IMG/VR virus record: IMGVR_UViG_3300025646_000030
Location: 6,708 to 70,707 of that record
From: a virus
Reading direction: 5' to 3' (one strand)
Length of the DNA stretch: 64,000 nt
The notes beneath the pieces are model-generated. The model saw only the letters and a list, made by a program, of their open reading frames with translations, had not been told where the DNA came from and searched no databases. The position numbers and the translations under genes are program-made. Position 1 is the first letter of the stretch, and every line of letters begins with the position of its first letter. Positions 51,724-60,292 of this stretch are shown in pieces.

Positions 51724-53095
51724 CAGACCACCACGTCGCTGTAGTAACGGGAGCCGGGACCGAAGTCCTCGATCAGGTGAGGGAAAGCGCCCTCGATGCG
51801 GCGCTTGTTTGGACCGTCGGCCTTGAACCACGCCTGTGCCAGGGCGGCGCAGAAGCCACCGCCGTGGCGTTGCATGGCGGCAAAAGTGCGGAAGGTCTCG
51901 GTGTAGGTAAGTGTGGAATTCATTTTGCTTGAATGAATGAATGACAGGCGGATGGTCAGTGCCACAGAACGGGTTGGGGATCGCCAAGGGCGGTGAAGAT
52001 GCGGCGCTCGGTCTGGCGCAGGTAGGCCCAGAGCTCTTCGCCCTCGGGGAGCACATCGGCTCCCTCATGGGTGTTGAGCTCCGCCAGTTCAGCGGGCCAG
52101 TCGATCCTGTTAAGAGCATCGGCGCAGAGGTAGCGCAGATGCTGCTTTTGGGCGTTTGTCAGTGTCATTTGGCTTGAATGAATGAAAGGCGGATGATGAG
52201 TTCCTCAACACAGTCGGCCTGAGATTTGTATTCCCAGGTGACTGGTGAGATGACGTAGTCATTGATGAAGTGTTCCTCCCACCATGCATTGATGGCGGAA
52301 CGGATTTGATCTTTGTTCATTTCGCTTCCGCGATAGAGACGTAGAACGACGGCTCATTGCTGGCGATTCCTCGCGATTGCTCCCACTTTTGTGTTATCTG
52401 GAGAGCTTCCATCTCACGCTGGGTTTCGATGGAGTAGATCCAGCGGTTGCGCTGTTTGAGCACGCACTTCACCTCGCCTAGAGCGACGTTGGTGAGCGCC
52501 TTGGCCTGCATGTGGTGCAGGAGCCATGTGCGTTCTGCGTCGTAGAGCGCAGTCAGCTCCTGGATTTGCAGCTGCAGTTGCCGTGCTCGGGCTAGGTGTT
52601 GGCCCACTTCACCCGTCGGCGCATAGGAGCGGGCACGTTTGGCGGGTTTGGCTGGCGCTTTGACAAAAGAAATGGTCATAGTCATTCACAACTGAAATGA
52701 TGAGTGAGAAAAACCGATTCGTTAATCGGTCACGATCAGCTGACGAAAGGTGAACGGTTCGCCGCGTTTGGCGTACTCGCTCAGGAGCATGTCCACAGCG
52801 GTGGGATCCTCCACCCAGTGCTCGTGCTCCCAGTCGTCTGACAGGAAGTGCCAGACGGGATGAAGCTCGGGGCCGGGCTCGGGATCAGGCGGCGAGAGAG
52901 GCCGGGGGTCAGGGCAGTAGGTCATGGGCCGGGATACACCGTGGGCGTGGGCGGAAGTGTGTTCGTGGGGTGGCGCATGCCGTGGTCGATCGCCATGGCG
53001 GCGATGGCCAGGCCGAGCAGAACACCGGCAACGTGCTCGGCTGTCACCCAGGGAGCGGGGCGCCGGCGACGACGGTCTGAGCGTAGAGGCGTCAT
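51723..53095 (-). other. Run of six small early genes
   Basis: Coupled ORFs: 51723-51923, 51956-52168, 52165-52320, 52317-52685, 52722-52925, 52922-53095. Confidence 0.55.
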
Positions 53096-53113
53096 GGGAA
53101 AAGGTCAACCAAA

Positions 53114-53797
53114 TCAGGAACAGGATGCCGCAGCACGCGCGGAACGCACGCCGTGTGCGGGAAACGTGATCACGAAGTCGCGGTCACCACGGGCGCAAAG
53201 CGGAGTGCCACCGCCGCAGGTGACGCATTGCGTCGGGGAACCATCGAACGTGGCCGGGCACTGGCGGAACTGCACGCCGCGATAGGTGAAGTGGGCCGGT
53301 GCGTCCTCGGGGACCACGCACACCACCGGATAGCCACGTTTGGCGTAGCGGGCAGCTTCCGCCCGCACCTCGGTGGACAGGTTCACCACGAAGCCACGGC
53401 GCAAGGCGCTGCGGATTGCAGCGAGATTTGCCGTGGTGCGCAGGTGGTGGGTATAGGTCCACGCGGCGCTCAGATGGCGCGTGGCATCGGCGAGCTTGCG
53501 CAGCAGATCGGCGCGGATGCGGCCGGCCTCGTGCCATAGGTCGCCCGCGACGTTGTGGCGAAACAGATTGCCAACCCGGATACGGCCTACGGCCGCGATG
53601 AACTCGAGTTCAGACAGGCCACGGGTGCCGGCCGTTACGGCATCCCAATGAAGCCGGGTGAAATAACCAGCCTCGGCATAACAGCCATCATCGCCAGCAA
53701 GTGGGCACGTTGGCGGGCAAGACGGGCGGGCCGTGGTGGACACGGCAATGGGTCCGGTCTTGTCATTAGAAGACCGGACGGTAAGGGCGGTGTTCAT
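53114..53797 (-). CDS. Cys-rich phage protein (gp88/radical-SAM-like family)
   Basis: SSNDKTG, CPPTCP..CYA, RHNVAGD, WTYTH, CPA..CVTC..LC, FPAHG. Confidence 0.7.
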   Translation of the reverse strand: MNTALTVRSSNDKTGPIAVSTTARPSCPPTCPLAGDDGCYAEAGYFTRLHWDAVTAGTRGLSELEFIAAVGRIRVGNLFRHNVAGDLWHEAGRIRADLLRKLADATRHLSAAWTYTHHLRTTANLAAIRSALRRGFVVNLSTEVRAEAARYAKRGYPVVCVVPEDAPAHFTYRGVQFRQCPATFDGSPTQCVTCGGGTPLCARGDRDFVITFPAHGVRSARAAASCS

Positions 53798-55467
53798 GCT
53801 TAACTCACAGCGAGAGGATGAAGGCGGCAAAGCCGCAGGCGCGATGCGCCCAGAGAGCCAACCCGTAGAAGGGAATGGCTCTGGGGGCGAGTCAGTAGCA
53901 GTCGCGGTCGTACTGATTCATGGCGTCAATGCCGCGCTTCCAGATAGCCAAAGCGCGGCCGTTCATTGCCATGTAAGTTTCATGCTCGCGCCAACGGCGG
54001 CTGTGGAAGGGTTCCCACCCGTGGTTGGCGGCGCAGGCTTCCTCCCATAGCAGGTCCATGCGACGTTCTGCGCAGATGGCGATGTTGGAGAAGTCGGTGC
54101 TCAGCATGGTTTGACCTCGTCGATGGTGGCATCCGCAGGTATTTCAATACCCCGGACGTGATCAGAAAAGTGGTTCAGCGCATCGTCTAGATCGACGCAC
54201 TCGGTGATTTCGGTCCAGCCAAAGCGGCCAGACGGTGTGCTCCAAGAGATTCGGAAGGTCATTGTTCGGATTCAAGACGGGTTTGGAGTACTGAAACGAT
54301 GTCCAGCACGTTGGACAGATGTGGTGCGGCTGCGCGGTAGTCCGCGTCTCCGGTGATGAGCTGCTCGGCTTCAAACAGCAGACGCCAGACCTCGAGGACC
54401 TTGGCGTAGCGGGCGTCGCTTGTAGTTGGTCGTTGCATAGGAATCAGAAAGCGTTGAAAGCGTCCTCGGGCCACACCTCCTCGATGTGGAAGGTGGCGTC
54501 TGGGTGGCGGCGGGTGAGGCCGGCAAGTTCCAGCACGACATCGGCGCGGCTGTAGCCCCAGATGCCTGTGGGGTTGGTGCGTGTGCCGAGGTCGTCGGTG
54601 ATGGTGGCGTAGATCTCGTAGGTCATCAGCGCATCAGGTAAAGGATCTCATCACCGTTCTCGGCTACATCGTTTGCCCAAATCCACAGCAAGCGCCGTAG
54701 ATTCTGCTGGTGATCACATAGTTGGGCGCGATCCCACGCGCCGTAGCCGGATAGGTGCTCGCGTATCAGCCACGCAGGGCCGTCAAATGACAGGCGATTA
54801 ACCCAGTGCTCTACCGCTTCATCGGACGGACCGGGCCGGGCGATATCAGAAACGCACTCGGTAGGGAGAGTACGGATGGCCATGCGGCCATCAAACCAAT
54901 CGTTCTTGAACATGGATAGAACAGTTTGTGAATGGGTTAAAGAGCACGGCGGCGAGCACGTTCCTGCGAATAGGTACACATCTGGTCGATGTAATACCCT
55001 TCCCGGATCGGATTCCAGCCGCGCATAGCGTCGGCAGCTTTTTTGCAATCTAGGATGATGTAATTCAGGCTGACCGCATCACACGATGCAGCATGATCGC
55101 GCCATTTGGCGAAGTCTTCAGCAGTTGCATGGTTGGCAATCATTACACTTCCTCCCAAGAATAGGTTTCAGGAAACTCAAACAGATCGCCATCTTGCGAC
55201 AAATAATGGTTCACACCATCGACATTGTGACAATAGGTGTTGAGAATTGATTCCCAAGCTTCCCAATAACATTCACATTCCGGCCCCATGGCCAGATCTT
55301 CTACATCACTGGCATTAACGCCAGCAGATGCCACAGCTTGCAAGCCGTAGCGTTCGGCCCACACTTGTGGCACATAAATGCCGTGGTGACCGTCAATAAT
55401 GCACACGGGTTCAGTCAAAGCAGTCATAGCTGATAACTCACAGCGAGAGAACATGCCACATAGTTGT

Positions 55468-55516
55468 GGCAATAACTGGGCAGGGGATTGCACCCTGCCT
55501 CCCGCTTAGACGGATC
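55468..55516 (-). repeat. 49-bp intergenic direct repeat, copy 1 (two-hairpin element)
   Basis: 47/49 identical to 55690-55738. Confidence 0.9.
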
Positions 55517-55689
55517 AGTTAGACCTGAAATTAATCAGGGCTTCCTGGATAGCACGCTCTACCCAAGCTTTAGGCACTGGGTAAAGTTGCCATTGCTTCC
55601 AGGTTTTAAACACAACCTGACGCTCGGCAACAGGAAGATGTTTGTAGCTCATGGATATCTCCATGTGTGCAGTGCCCATCTCTGCTGGG

Positions 55690-55738
55690 GGCAATAACTG
55701 GGCAGGGGATTGCACCCTGCCTCCCGCTTTTACGGATC
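55690..55738 (-). repeat. 49-bp intergenic direct repeat, copy 2
   Basis: 47/49 identical to 55468-55516. Confidence 0.9.
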
Positions 55739-55948
55739 GGCTCAGATGGACACTTGGTGCCAATCCTCCTCTACTTCCTCTAGTGGCACTTCTGCCACAT
55801 ACGTGACAGCTTCCGCTGGAGAATGCTGGAAGTCCCAGCCGTGAATCAGCTGGGCGCGATCACGCTCAACCGCTTCACGGCTGTATCCCCACACCATTTC
55901 GGTGTGGTAGCTATAAGCAAAAACAGTGAGGGTCATTGAACTAAAGCT

Positions 55949-55972
55949 AAAGACAAAAGGTGCAAAGCACCT
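55949..55972 (-). terminator. Putative intrinsic terminator
   Basis: AGGTGC-TTT-GCACCT followed by TTTGTCTTT. Confidence 0.6.
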
Positions 55973-56602
55973 CAGCCAAGCAACCCCCGGACGCAATACG
56001 TCAGGGGGAATGCCTGGGGGAGATGGATTGTGCGTGCTGAGCAGAGCCGAATGCTCGGTGCCACCGTGGGCACGCCGGCCACGGTTGTGGGGTGTCACCC
56101 CACTCCAGTTCGCATTATTAGTGCGGTGTCTGGACTTATTCCCATAGGTACAACAAAACAGTCGCGCCCCGGTTCGCCAGGGTTGCGCTGTCAGCTTCAC
56201 TGCCTGCCCACCAGGTAGCCACTAGCTTCGAAGGACTGAGAGTCCGCGCCTGCTAGCACTTACCTAGACCCGATGGCTCGGGCTTGGCTCGGCATCATGC
56301 CGCTGCACCTATTCCCCCATACCATCCGGGTCGGTTAGGGCCACAGCGCTCCCGCGCCATACGTGGCTTGTCCCTCCGGCGAGGCCAGGATTCAGACGAT
56401 ACGTAGGTGCAACCGAAGGCAATCGCCGCCCGTGGTGTACACCCCGGCCAGGCCAGAGCAGGAAGCTGCTTCCATGGCGAGGCTCATTGTCCGATACGTC
56501 TTCCCTCCAAGCTGGGCAGGCTCACCCGATAACGGGCTCGACACTGCGCTCGGCACGGTTGTTGTAAGTAGCTGACACGGTGGCTGTCACCCACCGATCC
56601 AT
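55950..56602 (-). ncRNA. Candidate large structured ncRNA (~580-650 nt)
   Basis: No credible ORF; more than 12 local hairpins, several 8-9-bp long-range helices and a closing 5'/3' stem; flanked by promoter and terminator. Confidence 0.7.
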
Positions 56603-56608
56603 GGCGTA

Positions 56609-56637
56609 AGCCTTGCACAGCTGCCGCCGATTGTCAA
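56609..56637 (-). promoter_or_regulatory. Sigma70-type early promoter
   Basis: TTGACA-N17-AAGGCT; predicted +1 near 56602. Confidence 0.65.
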
Positions 56638-56922
56638 CCCCTGCCGATTGGCTTAGGTTGGCGCAACGGGTCCGGCGGGAGCAGAGCCCCTTAGGGGTTG
56701 CTCGCAAGGCCGGATCCGTTCCGATGCACCAAGCATTGCACCGATGCCTGCAGCCGTCAAGCACTGCTAGCGAGTCTCTTGGATCTCGGTCTGAGACGAC
56801 TGCGCAGCCTCTATAGAGATAGAGTCGCACTGAGTCTTATGCGACACAGAGCGGGATGGTATGTAGTACTAACGAAGCCATATTAACTACTACTAAATAA
56901 ATGTATATGTATGCCTTGCTTA

Positions 56923-57300
56923 TTACTGCTCGCTCGCCCTAGTCAAAAGTCCGTTGATAATGTCAGCTGGCCGGCACTGGCGAGCAACGCACTCAGTGTC
57001 GAGCCATCTACGGTTGTTGGGTGTCAATGTAATCGATATTTTCAAACGCTCGTTTTCTTTGCGTAGTTGCTCGTTACTCTTGGACTGAGCGATACGGGCC
57101 GAGGTAGAGCGCCAGCGATCCAGCGTCCCCGGTGCCAAGTCGCCGCGCTCGGTGGCTTTCTGGAGGCGCTGCAGGATGCTCTGGCGCGACACCCCGAAGA
57201 TCTCGCCGACGTCAGCCCATTTCACGAAGCCGTGCGCTTCGTAAAGCCTTTCGCACGTCTGCGTGATGTCTTCGAGGGGTGTGTATTTGGGCGAGCCCAT
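56923..57300 (-). CDS. HTH DNA-binding protein
   Basis: WADVGEIFGVSRQSILQRL; RHH-like C-terminus. Confidence 0.7.
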   Translation of the reverse strand: MGSPKYTPLEDITQTCERLYEAHGFVKWADVGEIFGVSRQSILQRLQKATERGDLAPGTLDRWRSTSARIAQSKSNEQLRKENERLKISITLTPNNRRWLDTECVARQCRPADIINGLLTRASEQ

Positions 57301-57351
57301 TTCAGGGTCCTAAGAGTGCAGACCCAATGGTTGCACAGCGCCTACAAAACG

Positions 57352-57561
57352 TCAATCCCTCTCCGCTTCCGGCCCGTGGTACAGCCACTCCAGCTGTTGG
57401 CGCAGGTCGGCCTCGTGGCGTTCGTCGTCCACGTCGTCGTAGTCGTCCTCGGGGTCTGCCGGGAGCTCCACCACGATCCGGTTGATCCGGGGGCTCTTCG
57501 CTAAGCGCTCCAGCAGCCACTGCTCCCACCAGCGGAGGCCCAGATCAAGGCGGTCGCTCAT
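57352..57561 (-). CDS. Hypothetical protein
   Basis: Likely start MSDRLDLGLRWWEQ. Confidence 0.55.
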   Translation of the reverse strand: MSDRLDLGLRWWEQWLLERLAKSPRINRIVVELPADPEDDYDDVDDERHEADLRQQLEWLYHGPEAERD

Positions 57562-57599
57562 CAGTCGTCCTCGGTTACTCCAGATTGGGGCGCCCGCGC

Positions 57600-58463
57600 T
57601 CAAGCGGTATGGCCCTGGCGCGCAAGGTGCAGGCGCAGCTTGTTCAGCGCGGCGTAGTGGATCTGGCCGACACGCGAACGGGTCAGTCCCAGCTCCTCGG
57701 CCAGGGCGCGGAACGTCGTGTTCTCGTGGAAGACGGCATGCAGAATTTGGGCCTCAGTCTGGTTCAGGCACTCCGCCATGGCCAGCCGAAGGGCCTCGTA
57801 GTTGGCCTCCCGCTCCGCGCTTTCGTAGGCCTCGGGGGTCGAGTGGTCCGCGATGAACTCCACCAGGGCGTTCTCGGATTCGCGGCTCGGTGCATCGAGG
57901 GAGCAGCAGAGCGTGGTGGCGTGCTGGTCGAACACCTGCCGCATCCGCTCTTCCGTGACGCCGAGCTGCTCGGCCAGTTCGGCCTGCGTGGGTGGGCGGC
58001 CGTGCTGCGCTGTGTACTCGCTGGTGGCGCGTTGCGCCTTGTACAGGAGCTCGTACGTGTTGATCGGCAGGCGGATCGTCCGCGAGTAGGTGTTGATCGC
58101 CCTCGTGATCGCCTGGCGGATCCACCAATAGGTATATGTGCTGACGGCGTAGCCGCGGGTGGGATCGAAGAGCTCCAGGCCGCGGATCAGGCCGAGGGAG
58201 CCCTCCTGGATCAGGTCTGCCAGGTCGAGGCCACGACCTTGGTAGCGCTTGGCGATTGAGACGACCAGGCGGATGTTGGTCTCGATCATCACCTGCATCG
58301 AGCGCTCACCAGCGCGGCGCACCCTTGGAGGGGCAGCATCGCGACCGCCTCCGTGGTGCAGCCAGGTTTGGATCTGGCGGCAGTGGTGCAACTGCAGCTC
58401 CTTGGTGAGGACCTGGTGTCGACCGACCTCGGTTAGATAGTCGTGGATCTCAGAGTTGGACAT
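57600..58463 (-). CDS. RpoD/SigA-family RNA polymerase sigma factor
   Basis: [44 protein letters not shown], region-4 HTH. Confidence 0.95.
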
Positions 58464-58514
58464 GCGGTCGTTGGCAACCGGATTCGGGCGGGCGAAGGTA
58501 CGAAATGAAGGCGC

Positions 58515-58841
58515 TCATGACTCATGGCGATGGGATGGGATGTCCTGCTGCGCGGGGAGCGCGTAGCCCGGGGGCGTCTGAACCTGAGCGACGGGCGGCG
58601 GGTCCGGGGGGTCATGCACCTCAACGGGCAAGGGGGCTGCGAGGAGCAGGGCGTCCGGGTCACTTGTGAGGTGATCGGCGAGGACCCACTGAGCTCTGAG
58701 CAGGTCTTCGAAACAACGCTCCAAGAGCGGGGCGCTGCCGGCGTAGGCGAGGGCGCTGGACGGCGAGTTGCGTAGCTCCCATTTGTAGTAGCCGTCCTCG
58801 GTGGAGCGGATGGTGATGTGGAGGGGGGAGGCGAAGGTCAT
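58515..58841 (-). CDS. Hypothetical protein
   Basis: ORF coupled to the helicase stop. Confidence 0.55.
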   Translation of the reverse strand: MTFASPLHITIRSTEDGYYKWELRNSPSSALAYAGSAPLLERCFEDLLRAQWVLADHLTSDPDALLLAAPLPVEVHDPPDPPPVAQVQTPPGYALPAQQDIPSHRHES

Positions 58842-60292
58842 TAATCCGCAATTACGTGTAAAGCACTTGAAGCACGTGTGATACCGACGTAAGCAAGTTG
58901 ATTTTGTTGACGGGTTGGTTTGTTGCTCCAGCCGTCAATTTCCCTGTGAAGGAAGACATTGCGAAATGTACTCCCCTGACTCTTGTGAATGGTCAGCGCA
59001 GATGACGGTTGCAAGCGCCCGACGCTGTCCTTGCGAGTGAAGAAGAGTCTCCAAAGCATTCGGCGTCTCTCAGCAGACGCTTCTTTCGCTTTGTCTCGGA
59101 TGGCTTTCATTGTTGCCTTCCATCTACTCAGTGAATCTTGTGCTATTACTCGGAAGGTGACGCGAGACGAAGTGTCGCCTGGTATGCATGCGGTAATACG
59201 CCATGTGTTCCACGGTTCTGGCTGTTCTGCCTTTTCTGGCTTTTTAATGTTCTCGTCCTTAAGGATCTCCAGCCAGTCTAGATCTGTATTGAATATGTGT
59301 GGTTCGGGTAAGGCGCTCTCGATGACAACATCTGTTGTGCTGTAGAGCAAAGGGCTTCCCCCGTCTGGACTAGGTATGGCGTCGGAAGTTAAGCAACTCA
59401 TCCCTGCTACGAACTCGGGGGCATCAATCCCGTAGCGCCACTCATGGATCCGCCTATTTAGAGCTTCTACAGTTCTATTGGTCCATGCGAGTACGCGACA
59501 ATAGTCAGGGTCGTATAGCGAATCGCTAGACTTGAATGTATTAGACAGCGCTAGAAGCCACTCTTCTTGGCTTCCGTACGCAATTACTTTTGTATCTCCC
59601 CCTTCTGTCGAGAAAAACGGAGCCCGGCCCATGTCTAGCTCTCTGGTCTTTGTTGCCAGATTTAGAATGGCTCCGTCGTGTCTAAGCACCGACGTAAGTC
59701 GGTATCCTGTGGTGTAGGAGGTGAATGCGCGGCATACTGAGTCTTCACCTACTGGTAGCAGCTGGCGATCGTCGCCCACAAAGACAACAGGGCGCTCGCC
59801 CAACTCCTTGAGTAGTAAGTCATAAAGCTCACTATTTAACATTGAGCACTCATCTACGATGACAACGTCTATTTCCGGGTTTGGCACATAGCTGTGTATC
59901 CCTTCGTCCCATACCTCTGTTATGGTTAACATGTTTTTCCCGTAGGGGTCCGGCTCGAAGGTTTCTTTTCCTGTATCAAAATCTCGCTTTTGCCTTAAGC
60001 CTAGAAGTCTGTGAATAGTTGTGGCCTCAAAGTCTCTGGCGCCGTAGCTTCTTAACGCTTTCTCTACTTGTGCTCTAGCCTTGTGTGTCGGCGTCGCGAC
60101 AACCACGCGATAGCCTACGCTACTTAACCGACTAACCAGTGCGGCTGTTGTTACTGTCTTGCCAGTTCCTGCATAGCCACACAGTAAAACTCTGGAGCTT
60201 TCTCCATATATGTCAAGCAAGATAGATTCGACAACTTCTTCTTGATCCGCTGTCAAAGTCAGGGCCTTTGTATCGCATACTGTGTCGGTCAT
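58841..60292 (-). CDS. Dda/RecD-like SF1B helicase
   Basis: GYAGTGKT, TPTHKA, VDECSM, GD.RQL.PV, TIHKSQGSTF, YVGITRA. Confidence 0.92.
   Translation of the reverse strand: MTDTVCDTKALTLTADQEEVVESILLDIYGESSRVLLCGYAGTGKTVTTAALVSRLSSVGYRVVVATPTHKARAQVEKALRSYGARDFEATTIHRLLGLRQKRDFDTGKETFEPDPYGKNMLTITEVWDEGIHSYVPNPEIDVVIVDECSMLNSELYDLLLKELGERPVVFVGDDRQLLPVGEDSVCRAFTSYTTGYRLTSVLRHDGAILNLATKTRELDMGRAPFFSTEGGDTKVIAYGSQEEWLLALSNTFKSSDSLYDPDYCRVLAWTNRTVEALNRRIHEWRYGIDAPEFVAGMSCLTSDAIPSPDGGSPLLYSTTDVVIESALPEPHIFNTDLDWLEILKDENIKKPEKAEQPEPWNTWRITACIPGDTSSRVTFRVIAQDSLSRWKATMKAIRDKAKEASAERRRMLWRLFFTRKDSVGRLQPSSALTIHKSQGSTFRNVFLHREIDGWSNKPTRQQNQLAYVGITRASSALHVIAD

Follow-up and report, generated by a model that had tools for sequence, protein, structure and literature searches.

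A conserved structured RNA behind a phage sigma factor gene and its possible role as a bistable leader

Introduction

What is encoded by ~985 nucleotides (nt) of phage DNA that hold no credible open reading frame (ORF)? This question arises in a 70.7-kb virus record of IMG/VR (IMGVR_UViG_3300025646_000030), where nearly all long ORFs are on the minus strand. We analyzed 64,000 nt of this record, which we refer to as the window and to which all coordinates below apply unless a locus is named. The gap lies between a gene for a protein of 125 amino acids (aa; 56923-57300) and a gene for a protein of 64 aa (55742-55936). A preliminary description, made from the letters of the window, had placed a large structured RNA here at the head of an early operon, and every string that it quoted was found at its minus-strand position. 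Comparison with related loci now supports a conserved, structured, non-coding RNA of ~650 nt that is encoded by the minus strand of 56637-55950 and is predicted to begin near 56602. We think it somewhat probable that this RNA heads a long transcription unit as a bistable leader that acts in cis. The word early is not supported: the RNA always lies behind a sigma factor gene, and the unit could be a middle or late one because the RNA heads ~56 kb of same-strand genes that include a terminase gene.

Relatives and conservation of the non-coding region

For a comparative analysis we used an alignment of 31 homologues of the 125-aa protein (93-44% identity) as a query and recovered 26 loci from metagenomes and 11 from viruses. 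A pattern of 38 letters, taken from where the RNA is best conserved, matched 45 IMG/VR contigs, and 42 distinct sequences remained once duplicates were removed. A search of phage GenBank DNA with the stretch gave no match, nor did scans of IMG/VR in which the 125-aa protein or the helicase was the only query; the same kind of scan with the sigma factor returned one distant locus. The 38-letter pattern matched 1 contig among 32 million bacterial and archaeal contigs, a 3.4-kb piece of a metagenome-assembled genome that carries the whole RNA. Because this single contig was the only match and has the whole RNA, we rejected the idea that the motif is an attP site or a copy of a host gene.

The non-coding DNA behind the 125-aa gene is similar in many loci, to a degree that exceeds the similarity of the protein. 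Locus L025 shares 76% identity with the window over 647 nt of the RNA region, versus 45% for its upstream 125-aa protein. In L027, identity is 96.7% over 92 nt versus 35% for the protein. The 3' module of the RNA was single-copy in each of five phage genomes of ~60-72 kb. Of the 60 loci with the motif, 52 have a sigma factor homologue on the same strand 5' of it, and in the other eight the available sequence ends less than 1,920 nt upstream. Depending on the locus, the sigma gene directly borders the non-coding region or is separated from it by the 125-aa gene.

Could this conservation reflect one or more small protein-coding genes that were missed? ORFs of 37-84 codons do occur on the RNA strand of this GC-rich stretch. 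However, no ORF frame is kept among the relatives, substitutions follow base-pairing, and indels are mostly not multiples of three (5 of 6, 9 of 11, and 13 of 16 in 11 sequences). The earlier statement that no credible ORF is present therefore stands, and we regard missed genes as extremely unlikely.

We also compared the region with known RNA families. Rfam 15, applied to the whole window at its curated gathering thresholds, gave only a tRNA, and a search of 55500-57100 with E values up to 10 gave only a chance match to RAGATH-10 (15.9 bits versus a cut-off of 41.2). Rfam models gave 0 matches on 14 related loci (118 kb) and the riboswitch aptamer families of Rfam gave none, in line with the proposal that the RNA is new to Rfam. 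With ARAGORN, the region and seven relatives gave no tRNA or tmRNA. Group I and group II introns and RNase P were rejected as candidates, with no model match and no excision joints in contigs of four RNA runs, a weak test given that contigs drop rare forms. At the level of titles and abstracts, no description of the element was found in the literature. It may be listed in a catalogue of more than 10,000 candidate structured RNAs from IMG/VR (PMC10690425).

The 3' module and its bistable strand

The 3' module spans ~155 nt (window ~56104-55950) and is near-invariant. RNAalifold together with reading of the alignments resolved it into a variable hairpin, an H-type pseudoknot, an irregular hairpin of ~23 bp that is nearly invariant in 36 sequences, and a 7-bp hairpin. 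The module begins with the hairpin GUGGGGU-GAC-ACCCCAC (56087-56103, minus strand as are all elements that follow), and by eye the stems of relatives at that place are GCGCAGU/ACUGCGC, GCUGGGU/ACCCAGC, and GCCAGGU/ACCUGGC. The pseudoknot (56032-56084) has the stem CCGUGG/CCACGG (56084-56079 with 56069-56064), whose loop GCGUGC (56075-56070) pairs with GCACGC (56037-56032); the hairpin GGCA..GAGC/GCUC..UGCU is in between. Across the family, the loop pairing has the form GCGUGN with NCACGC downstream. In the long irregular hairpin (55968-56025), CAUCUC (56025-56020) closes on GAGGUG (55973-55968), and the interior contains CCAGGCA/UGCUUGG and CCCCC..GACGU/GCGUC..GGGGG.

Covariation among homologues, which the preliminary description had named as a check, was found in each of five alignments of parts of the RNA, with 9, 12, 18, 6, and 24 pairs changed on both sides; none of 500 shuffles of each alignment reached these numbers. 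Three of the alignments cover the 3' module. In an alignment of 18 sequences, 97.5% of positions were paired and 9 of 44 pairs were changed on both sides (shuffle mean 3.5). A covariance model of the module then gave 38 matches in 48 sources, one of which is a weak reverse-strand echo in L058. In the alignment of these 38 matches, pairing reached 98.7% and both sides had changed in 18 of 38 pairs, compared to a shuffle mean of 7.9 and to 3-5 in slid controls. The pseudoknot and the closing helix, which lie outside the covariance model, were 97.9% paired, and 6 of their 12 pairs had changes on both sides (shuffle mean 1.8). All six pairs of pseudoknot stem 1 were changed on both sides in the 38 sequences. 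The loop pairing was 95.2% paired, with three of its six pairs changed on both sides.

The same comparison revealed two partners for one strand. GAGGUG pairs backward with CAUCUC to close the long hairpin, and this helix was 99.6% paired with three of six pairs changed on both sides. GAGGUGC also pairs forward with GCACCUC, and this helix was 97.3% paired with three of seven pairs changed on both sides. By eye, a U-to-G change in GAGGUG (L029, L010, L071, and L080) is matched upstream and, in L029 and L010, also downstream. The two pairings are mutually exclusive and, because both are kept by compensating changes, both are under selection; judged from the alignments, the element is bistable. 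Constraint of this degree on the 3' module suggests that the module is in contact with a conserved machine of the host, for example RNA polymerase, the ribosome, or an RNase.

Two further measures are consistent with a structured RNA on the minus strand. At two pairs, 31 and 35 of the 38 sequences have G-U, as the preliminary description had noted for this strand in general. The minus strand is taken to be the RNA strand because these pairs would be A-C mismatches on the other one. The whole 688 nt folds better than shuffled sequence (20 shuffles per strand): z is -3.18 for the minus strand and -2.27 for the plus strand, compared to 0.01 and -1.58 for two coding controls. The source of this signal is the 3' 156 nt, which alone has z -3.94 with none of 200 shuffles as good.

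In the window, the alternative hairpin GAGGUGC-UUU-GCACCUU is followed by UUUUGUCUUU (55950-55973) and looks like a terminator. Both the long hairpin and the hairpin with a U-tract that had been reported here are present. The hairpin at 55973-55957 followed by TTGTCTTTAG has the form of an intrinsic terminator. The scan that called it says little by itself because it gave 2 sites in the region versus 2.4 in shuffles. In relatives, the module has no U-tract and ends where a small, variable gene begins, with the AUG 84-94 nt after the start of the motif; the first gene belongs to 11 unrelated clusters among 39 sequences. A small hairpin before this AUG, which is not in the window, switches by eye from GCUG/CAGC to GCAG/CUGC.

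Some relatives show variations on the module. L009 is a class-A relative (see below) without the usual 3' module. At L009:2545-2640 it has a hairpin, GGGGG-UUCAAGU-CCCCC, with a loop like the T-loop of tRNA, then a UUCG-capped hairpin and then the usual GCUG..CAGC hairpin before the AUG; ARAGORN called no tRNA there. In L058 (3405-3628) and L010 (3457-3677), the pseudoknot and the long hairpin are separated by an additional hairpin of ~65 nt, ahead of which part of the CACAAACCAUCUC linker is duplicated.

The central domain

Upstream of the 3' module is a central domain that occurs as several classes that do not align with one another between shared ends. The window has class A, a multi-helix domain of ~500 nt (56105-56602) that is 64-79% identical in 10 other loci. 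We placed 11 other loci in this class (L025, L048, L054, L058, L060, L061, L067, L068, L074, L085, and L086), which also takes in L009 and L027, a fragment at a contig end. We rejected the idea that the RNA class tracks the neighboring 125-aa protein: L029 has a 69% identical protein and a different class, and L025 has a 45% identical protein and the same class.

In 11 class-A sequences, the predicted pairs of 56386-56135 were 97.7% paired and 12 of 76 were changed on both sides, compared to a mean of 5.7 in the 500 shuffles and 0-4 in slid controls. Class B, which cannot be aligned to class A, had 24 of 57 pairs changed on both sides in 14 sequences (shuffle mean 12.0), and none of 500 shuffles matched it in any of five measures. 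Because both classes covary, the middle is, on this comparative evidence, structured RNA in at least two classes.

These results bear on a simpler explanation, in which the locus is a plain control region with real promoters and a long untranslated spacer, the middle of which is an exchangeable filler acquired by recombination at conserved flanks, and only the 3' ~155 nt are functional. Non-aligning classes between shared ends, and a middle that folds no better than shuffles, are what this explanation would predict. It does not account for compensated pairs in class A and class B far above slid controls, for a GGGA loop that is kept on three stems (see below), or for a length that is always at least 560 nt. 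For these reasons we consider a filler quite unlikely.

Of the five long-range helices proposed in the preliminary description, one survived the comparison (GCCUGCCCA/UGGGCAGGC) and four failed. Four of the proposed helices, with the pseudoknot assessed separately, were together 70.8% paired in the 11-sequence alignment versus 71.0% in shuffles. The closing helix ATGGAT/ATCCAT was 62% paired and TGCACCTA/TAGGTGCA was 65% paired. The proposed pseudoknot TACAACAA/TTGTTGTA reached 76% with no compensating change. TGTCAGCT/AGCTGACA was 51% paired and is disfavored because an A-U to U-A change in L009 sits in a local hairpin, GACAGCGC...GCGACUGUU (56157-56192; 100% paired), so that the partner of AGCTGACA is local. 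The strands of this hairpin in the central fold are GACAGCGC/GCGACUGU. The partners of TAGGTGCA and TTGTTGTA are each other's neighborhood in an 11-bp helix that replaces two of the earlier pairings. This helix, AUAGGUGCAGC (56302-56312) with GUUGUACCUAU (56144-56154), closes a multi-branch sub-domain and was 98.2% paired, with A-U changed to G-C in two sequences; a pairing of UAGGUGC with GCCCUA was dropped in its favor.

By contrast to the four helices that failed, the 9-bp long-range helix GCCTGCCCA/TGGGCAGGC was 97.9% paired. Here UGCCCA (56513-56518) pairs with UGGGCA (56205-56210). Both strands are invariant in nine sequences, and L058 and L009 have UGCCAC with GUGG(U/C)A, which by hand gives two compensated pairs. 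GGCA (56204-56201), which adjoins UGGGCA, pairs with UGCC near 56292 with one compensated pair. The hairpin with a GGGA loop was also borne out: GGCGC-GGGA-GCGCU (56345-56358) lies within the stem GCCAC/GUGGC (56367-56363 with 56344-56340), where three pairs are changed on both sides, and its loop is kept in relatives on three different stems, including CACCUA/UAGGUG and GGCCGG/CCGGCC. A central helix CCGG/CCGG changes to CCAG/CUGG.

The 5' third is more variable. Its first hairpin, GGUGG-GUGACAG-CCACC (56579-56595), is absent in L025 and L068, and by eye the stems at this place in relatives are GCGGAGC/GCUCCGC, GCGGGGC/GCCCUGC, and GGGUG/CGCCC. Other stems read by eye in this third are CCGAGC/GCUUGG and a hairpin CCCG/CGGG that becomes CCCGGU/ACCGGG and GCCUGGC/GCCAGGC. 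The block CAACAACC (56557-56564) is conserved in 10 of 11 class-A sequences. The partner proposed for it showed no covariation, and the block is probably unpaired or in a tertiary contact. The stretch 56500-56390 could not be aligned across the two sub-groups of class A, and we claim no pairs there because GGCGGCGAUUGCC lies on opposite sides of GGACAAU in the two. The motif GGCGGCGAUUGCC(U/C)GCGG comes after GGACAAUGAG in the window's sub-group and before GGACAAUAAG in L058 and L009. This opposite placement suggests a rearrangement or permutation inside the central domain.

Putative promoters ahead of the RNA

Two promoter-like sequences precede the RNA on the minus strand. P1 (TTGACG-N14-TGC-AATGCT; 56732-56760) and P2 (TTGACA-N14-TGC-AAGGCT; 56609-56637, with a predicted start near 56602) each have a -35 box and a TG-extended -10 box, and both are putative promoters. 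The pattern TTGACN{15,17}TGCWAKRYT has two matches in the 64-kb window, 56760-56732 and 56637-56609, compared to 0.03 expected. P2 had been proposed before as TTGACA-N17-AAGGCT, and it belongs to a pattern that recurs in relatives as one to three tandem copies of TTGAC(A/G), 14-15 nt, TGC, and a weak -10 box. A looser regular expression matches 24 of 37 related representatives, and other loci show a variant -10 box. In five genomes of 60-72 kb, all seven promoter matches are within ~1.5 kb upstream of the 3' module on the same strand, and the reversed control gave none. L058 has a near-identical copy of P2 in the same relative place. In every locus with a promoter match, at least 560 nt separate the last promoter from the 3' motif.

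In two relatives (G002:C1:22199-22229 and G004:C1:22455-22485), another sequence of this promoter type is found ~1.4 kb upstream of the module, in front of the 125-aa gene rather than behind it. In the leaders of L025, L024, and L026, two small hairpins with the loops GGAA or GAAC and UCCG or UUCG are located right behind the promoter; the RNA of the window is ~60 nt shorter at its 5' end because it lacks them.

The promoters also bear on the possibility that the locus is a transcription-primed replication origin or a single-strand initiation signal, where the folded RNA would serve as a primer and the 3' element would be the site at which DNA synthesis starts. The RNA II of ColE1 and the promoter-dependent origin of T7 are analogues. 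The locus is single-copy, its promoter type is found nowhere else in these genomes, it adjoins the helicase and other upstream genes, and ~75 nt are near-invariant at the DNA level, all of which would suit an origin. However, the locus lacks iterons and an AT-rich region, and both conservation and covariation extend into the site where translation of the next gene starts. GC skew does not turn here, a weak point since all genes are on one strand. On balance an origin seems very unlikely.

RNA-library contigs

Twenty public runs contain part of the stretch and five of these are RNA libraries. We mapped contigs from four RNA runs of three studies on 53000-60000. Such contigs give no strand, ends, or level and, since DNA can occur in RNA libraries, their presence is not proof of transcription. 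A contig of 413 nt matches 56135-56547 with 2 differences, one of 415 nt matches 56174-56588 with 3 differences, one of 267 nt matches 56316-56582 with 8 differences, and one of 262 nt matches 55957-56195 with 10 differences. In runs X16 and X17, nothing at 95% identity or above was found on the flanking genes of the 7-kb stretch, and uncovered parts were not counted as evidence for a discrete or abundant RNA. Two pieces from run X18 match 53243-53461 and 57411-57647 at ~88% identity. The short pile-ups at 58091-58290 come from other organisms and represent conserved pieces of their sigma factors.

A cis-acting leader and its alternatives

The structures described above can be combined into a mechanism. 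RNA polymerase would start at the tandem promoters behind the phage's own sigma factor gene, at P2 near 56602 or at P1 near 56725. It would then transcribe the class-specific multi-helix domain of ~500 nt and after this the near-invariant 3' module of ~155 nt. At this point GAGGUG would pair either backward, closing the long hairpin, or forward, forming the second hairpin, and the choice would set the outcome. In the window the forward hairpin should terminate transcription and leave a discrete RNA of ~650 nt because a U-tract comes after it. With backward pairing, the polymerase would read on through the small genes and the ~56 kb of genes that follow on this strand. In relatives without a U-tract, the covarying hairpin abuts the AUG and the switch would set processing, stability, or translation. 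Its trigger could be the polymerase itself, as with the put RNAs discussed below, or a protein or a ligand.

Several points weigh against this leader. Its start, its end, the transcribed strand, and read-through are predicted from sequence. A generic promoter scan called neither P1 nor P2; it misses them because their -10 boxes, AATGCT and AAGGCT, match TATAAT at only two to three of six positions, and it is the -35 box, the spacing, and the TG that are conserved. Among the 39 family sequences listed, only the window has a full U-tract after the second hairpin, because of which a terminator/antiterminator switch is not a mechanism for the whole family. Part of the near-invariance of the 3' motif is accounted for by the search for loci with an exact pattern; 15 loci found via the neighboring protein also show the motif, 14 as the exact pattern and L031 as a variant. 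The claim that the RNA folds better than shuffles, which held for the whole stretch and the 3' module, failed for the central 498 nt (z -0.80; 24 of 100 shuffles as good). The covariation of class A comes from about four or five lineages, and one of its five measures, further pair types, was not above shuffles (28 versus 27.5, reached by 258 of 500). The structures of classes A and B were predicted from the same alignments that were tested, which favors them over the slid controls. Lastly, a cis-acting leader leaves the need for a structured, class-variable domain of ~500 nt unexplained.

This last point is where a free-standing, trans-acting large ornate RNA would do better. The body of ~500 nt would then be a scaffold, a decoy, or an RNA-only assembly, and the 3' module would end, process, or stabilize it. 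The central domains are long, with at least 560 nt from promoter to 3' motif, they are structured in two classes with conserved GNRA-type loops, and they have been exchanged between otherwise distant phages. The window has a terminator-like end, and RNA-library contigs at 99% identity lie inside the central domain. Against this, in relatives without a U-tract the conserved RNA continues into the AUG of the first gene, Rfam has no large-RNA match, the central domain gives no thermodynamic signal, and the most conserved part is the 3' module rather than the central body. A trans-acting RNA is thus rather unlikely in our view. The preliminary description had named a decoy, a scaffold, or an antitermination leader. 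The last of these is near the best reading; a cis-acting leader fits better than a free RNA like GOLLD or ROOL because the RNA of relatives runs, without a U-tract, into a start codon.

An RNA with two functions would join these ideas. The ornate domain would be released and act in trans, for instance as a decoy or scaffold against a strain-variable host system, while the invariant module would steer RNA polymerase, without a protein, between release and read-through of ~56 kb. We judge this combination unlikely.

If the RNA is a cis-acting leader, a family of ~70-kb freshwater and estuarine phages sets one elaborate RNA between a sigma factor gene and most of its genes. The 3' module is among the clearer uncatalogued phage RNA structures, near-invariant where proteins have diverged to 35-45% identity. 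It is a case in which control of long phage operons by RNA can be tested at the bench, in hosts for which little is known about such control. A further question, raised by the exchangeable and structured central domains, is what a class-variable RNA of 500 nt does at the head of an operon.

Comparison with known systems

The late leader of phage lambda offers one comparison. There, transcription from the PR' promoter gives a 194-nt 6S transcript that ends at the terminator tR', and read-through occurs after Q acts at qut. As in lambda, a regulator gene is directly upstream of the RNA described here, a putative strong promoter is followed by a non-coding leader and, in this window, a terminator-like hairpin, and a very long same-strand array that includes a terminase gene lies behind the leader. 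Unlike in lambda, the leader has an elaborate fold and three to four times the length, a sigma factor takes the place of Q as the regulator, and most relatives have no U-tract.

The put RNAs of HK022 are cis-acting and cause processive antitermination without a protein, and each consists of two adjacent stem-loops in ~70 nt. The likeness is in a nascent RNA between the promoter and the first genes, two adjacent stem-loops under strong sequence constraint, and a proposed logic of read-through of a long operon. The element described here differs from put in that it adds a pseudoknot and a domain of ~500 nt, and its second hairpin competes with the first.

In the early region of T7, the tandem promoters A1-A3 and the RNase III site R0.3 are ahead of gene 0.3. 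Our locus likewise has putative tandem promoters and then, immediately before a small first gene, a long and irregular hairpin that spans about two helical turns. By contrast, the T7 leader is short, its hairpins are not near-invariant across distant phages, and the host here is probably a cyanobacterium.

Both GOLLD and ROOL have Rfam models. Riboswitch and attenuator platforms are similar to our element in that they have two exclusive, compensated helices on one strand and a conserved pseudoknotted domain directly upstream; unlike riboswitches, the element matches no known aptamer class. With GOLLD and ROOL it shares a large size, carriage by phages, multiple helices with pseudoknots, and a lake or estuary setting (PMC12286853). 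It differs from them in having no Rfam match and no tRNA neighbor, in being fused to a promoter cluster and a gene start, and in its non-aligning central classes.

Neighboring genes and other elements

The sigma-70-family factor gene (57600-58463, minus strand) has Pfam regions 2, 3, and 4; it is a syntenic partner that lies outside the RNA. The closest cultured relatives are cyanophages: the terminase is 31% identical to that of a Cylindrospermopsis phage and the sigma factor is 39% identical to that of Synechococcus phage S-CBS1. No comparable gap was found behind the sigma gene of the isolate S-CBS1.

The 125-aa protein, with its 31 homologues, belongs to no Pfam family. By eye it has a helix-turn-helix-like center (GVSRQAVLNRLQ) and a ribbon-helix-helix-like end, because of which it may be a DNA-binding regulator. 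In some phages its gene is 5.5-7 kb downstream of the RNA rather than upstream. The 64-aa protein, whose gene on the minus strand is the first one 3' of the RNA, likewise belongs to no family.

A 49-nt element occurs twice, at 55468-55516 and 55690-55738 (222 nt apart, 96% identical). Both copies are located just after the stop codons of two small genes 3' of the RNA, and a contig of 252 nt, assembled from an RNA library, differs from 55690-55737 at 7 positions.

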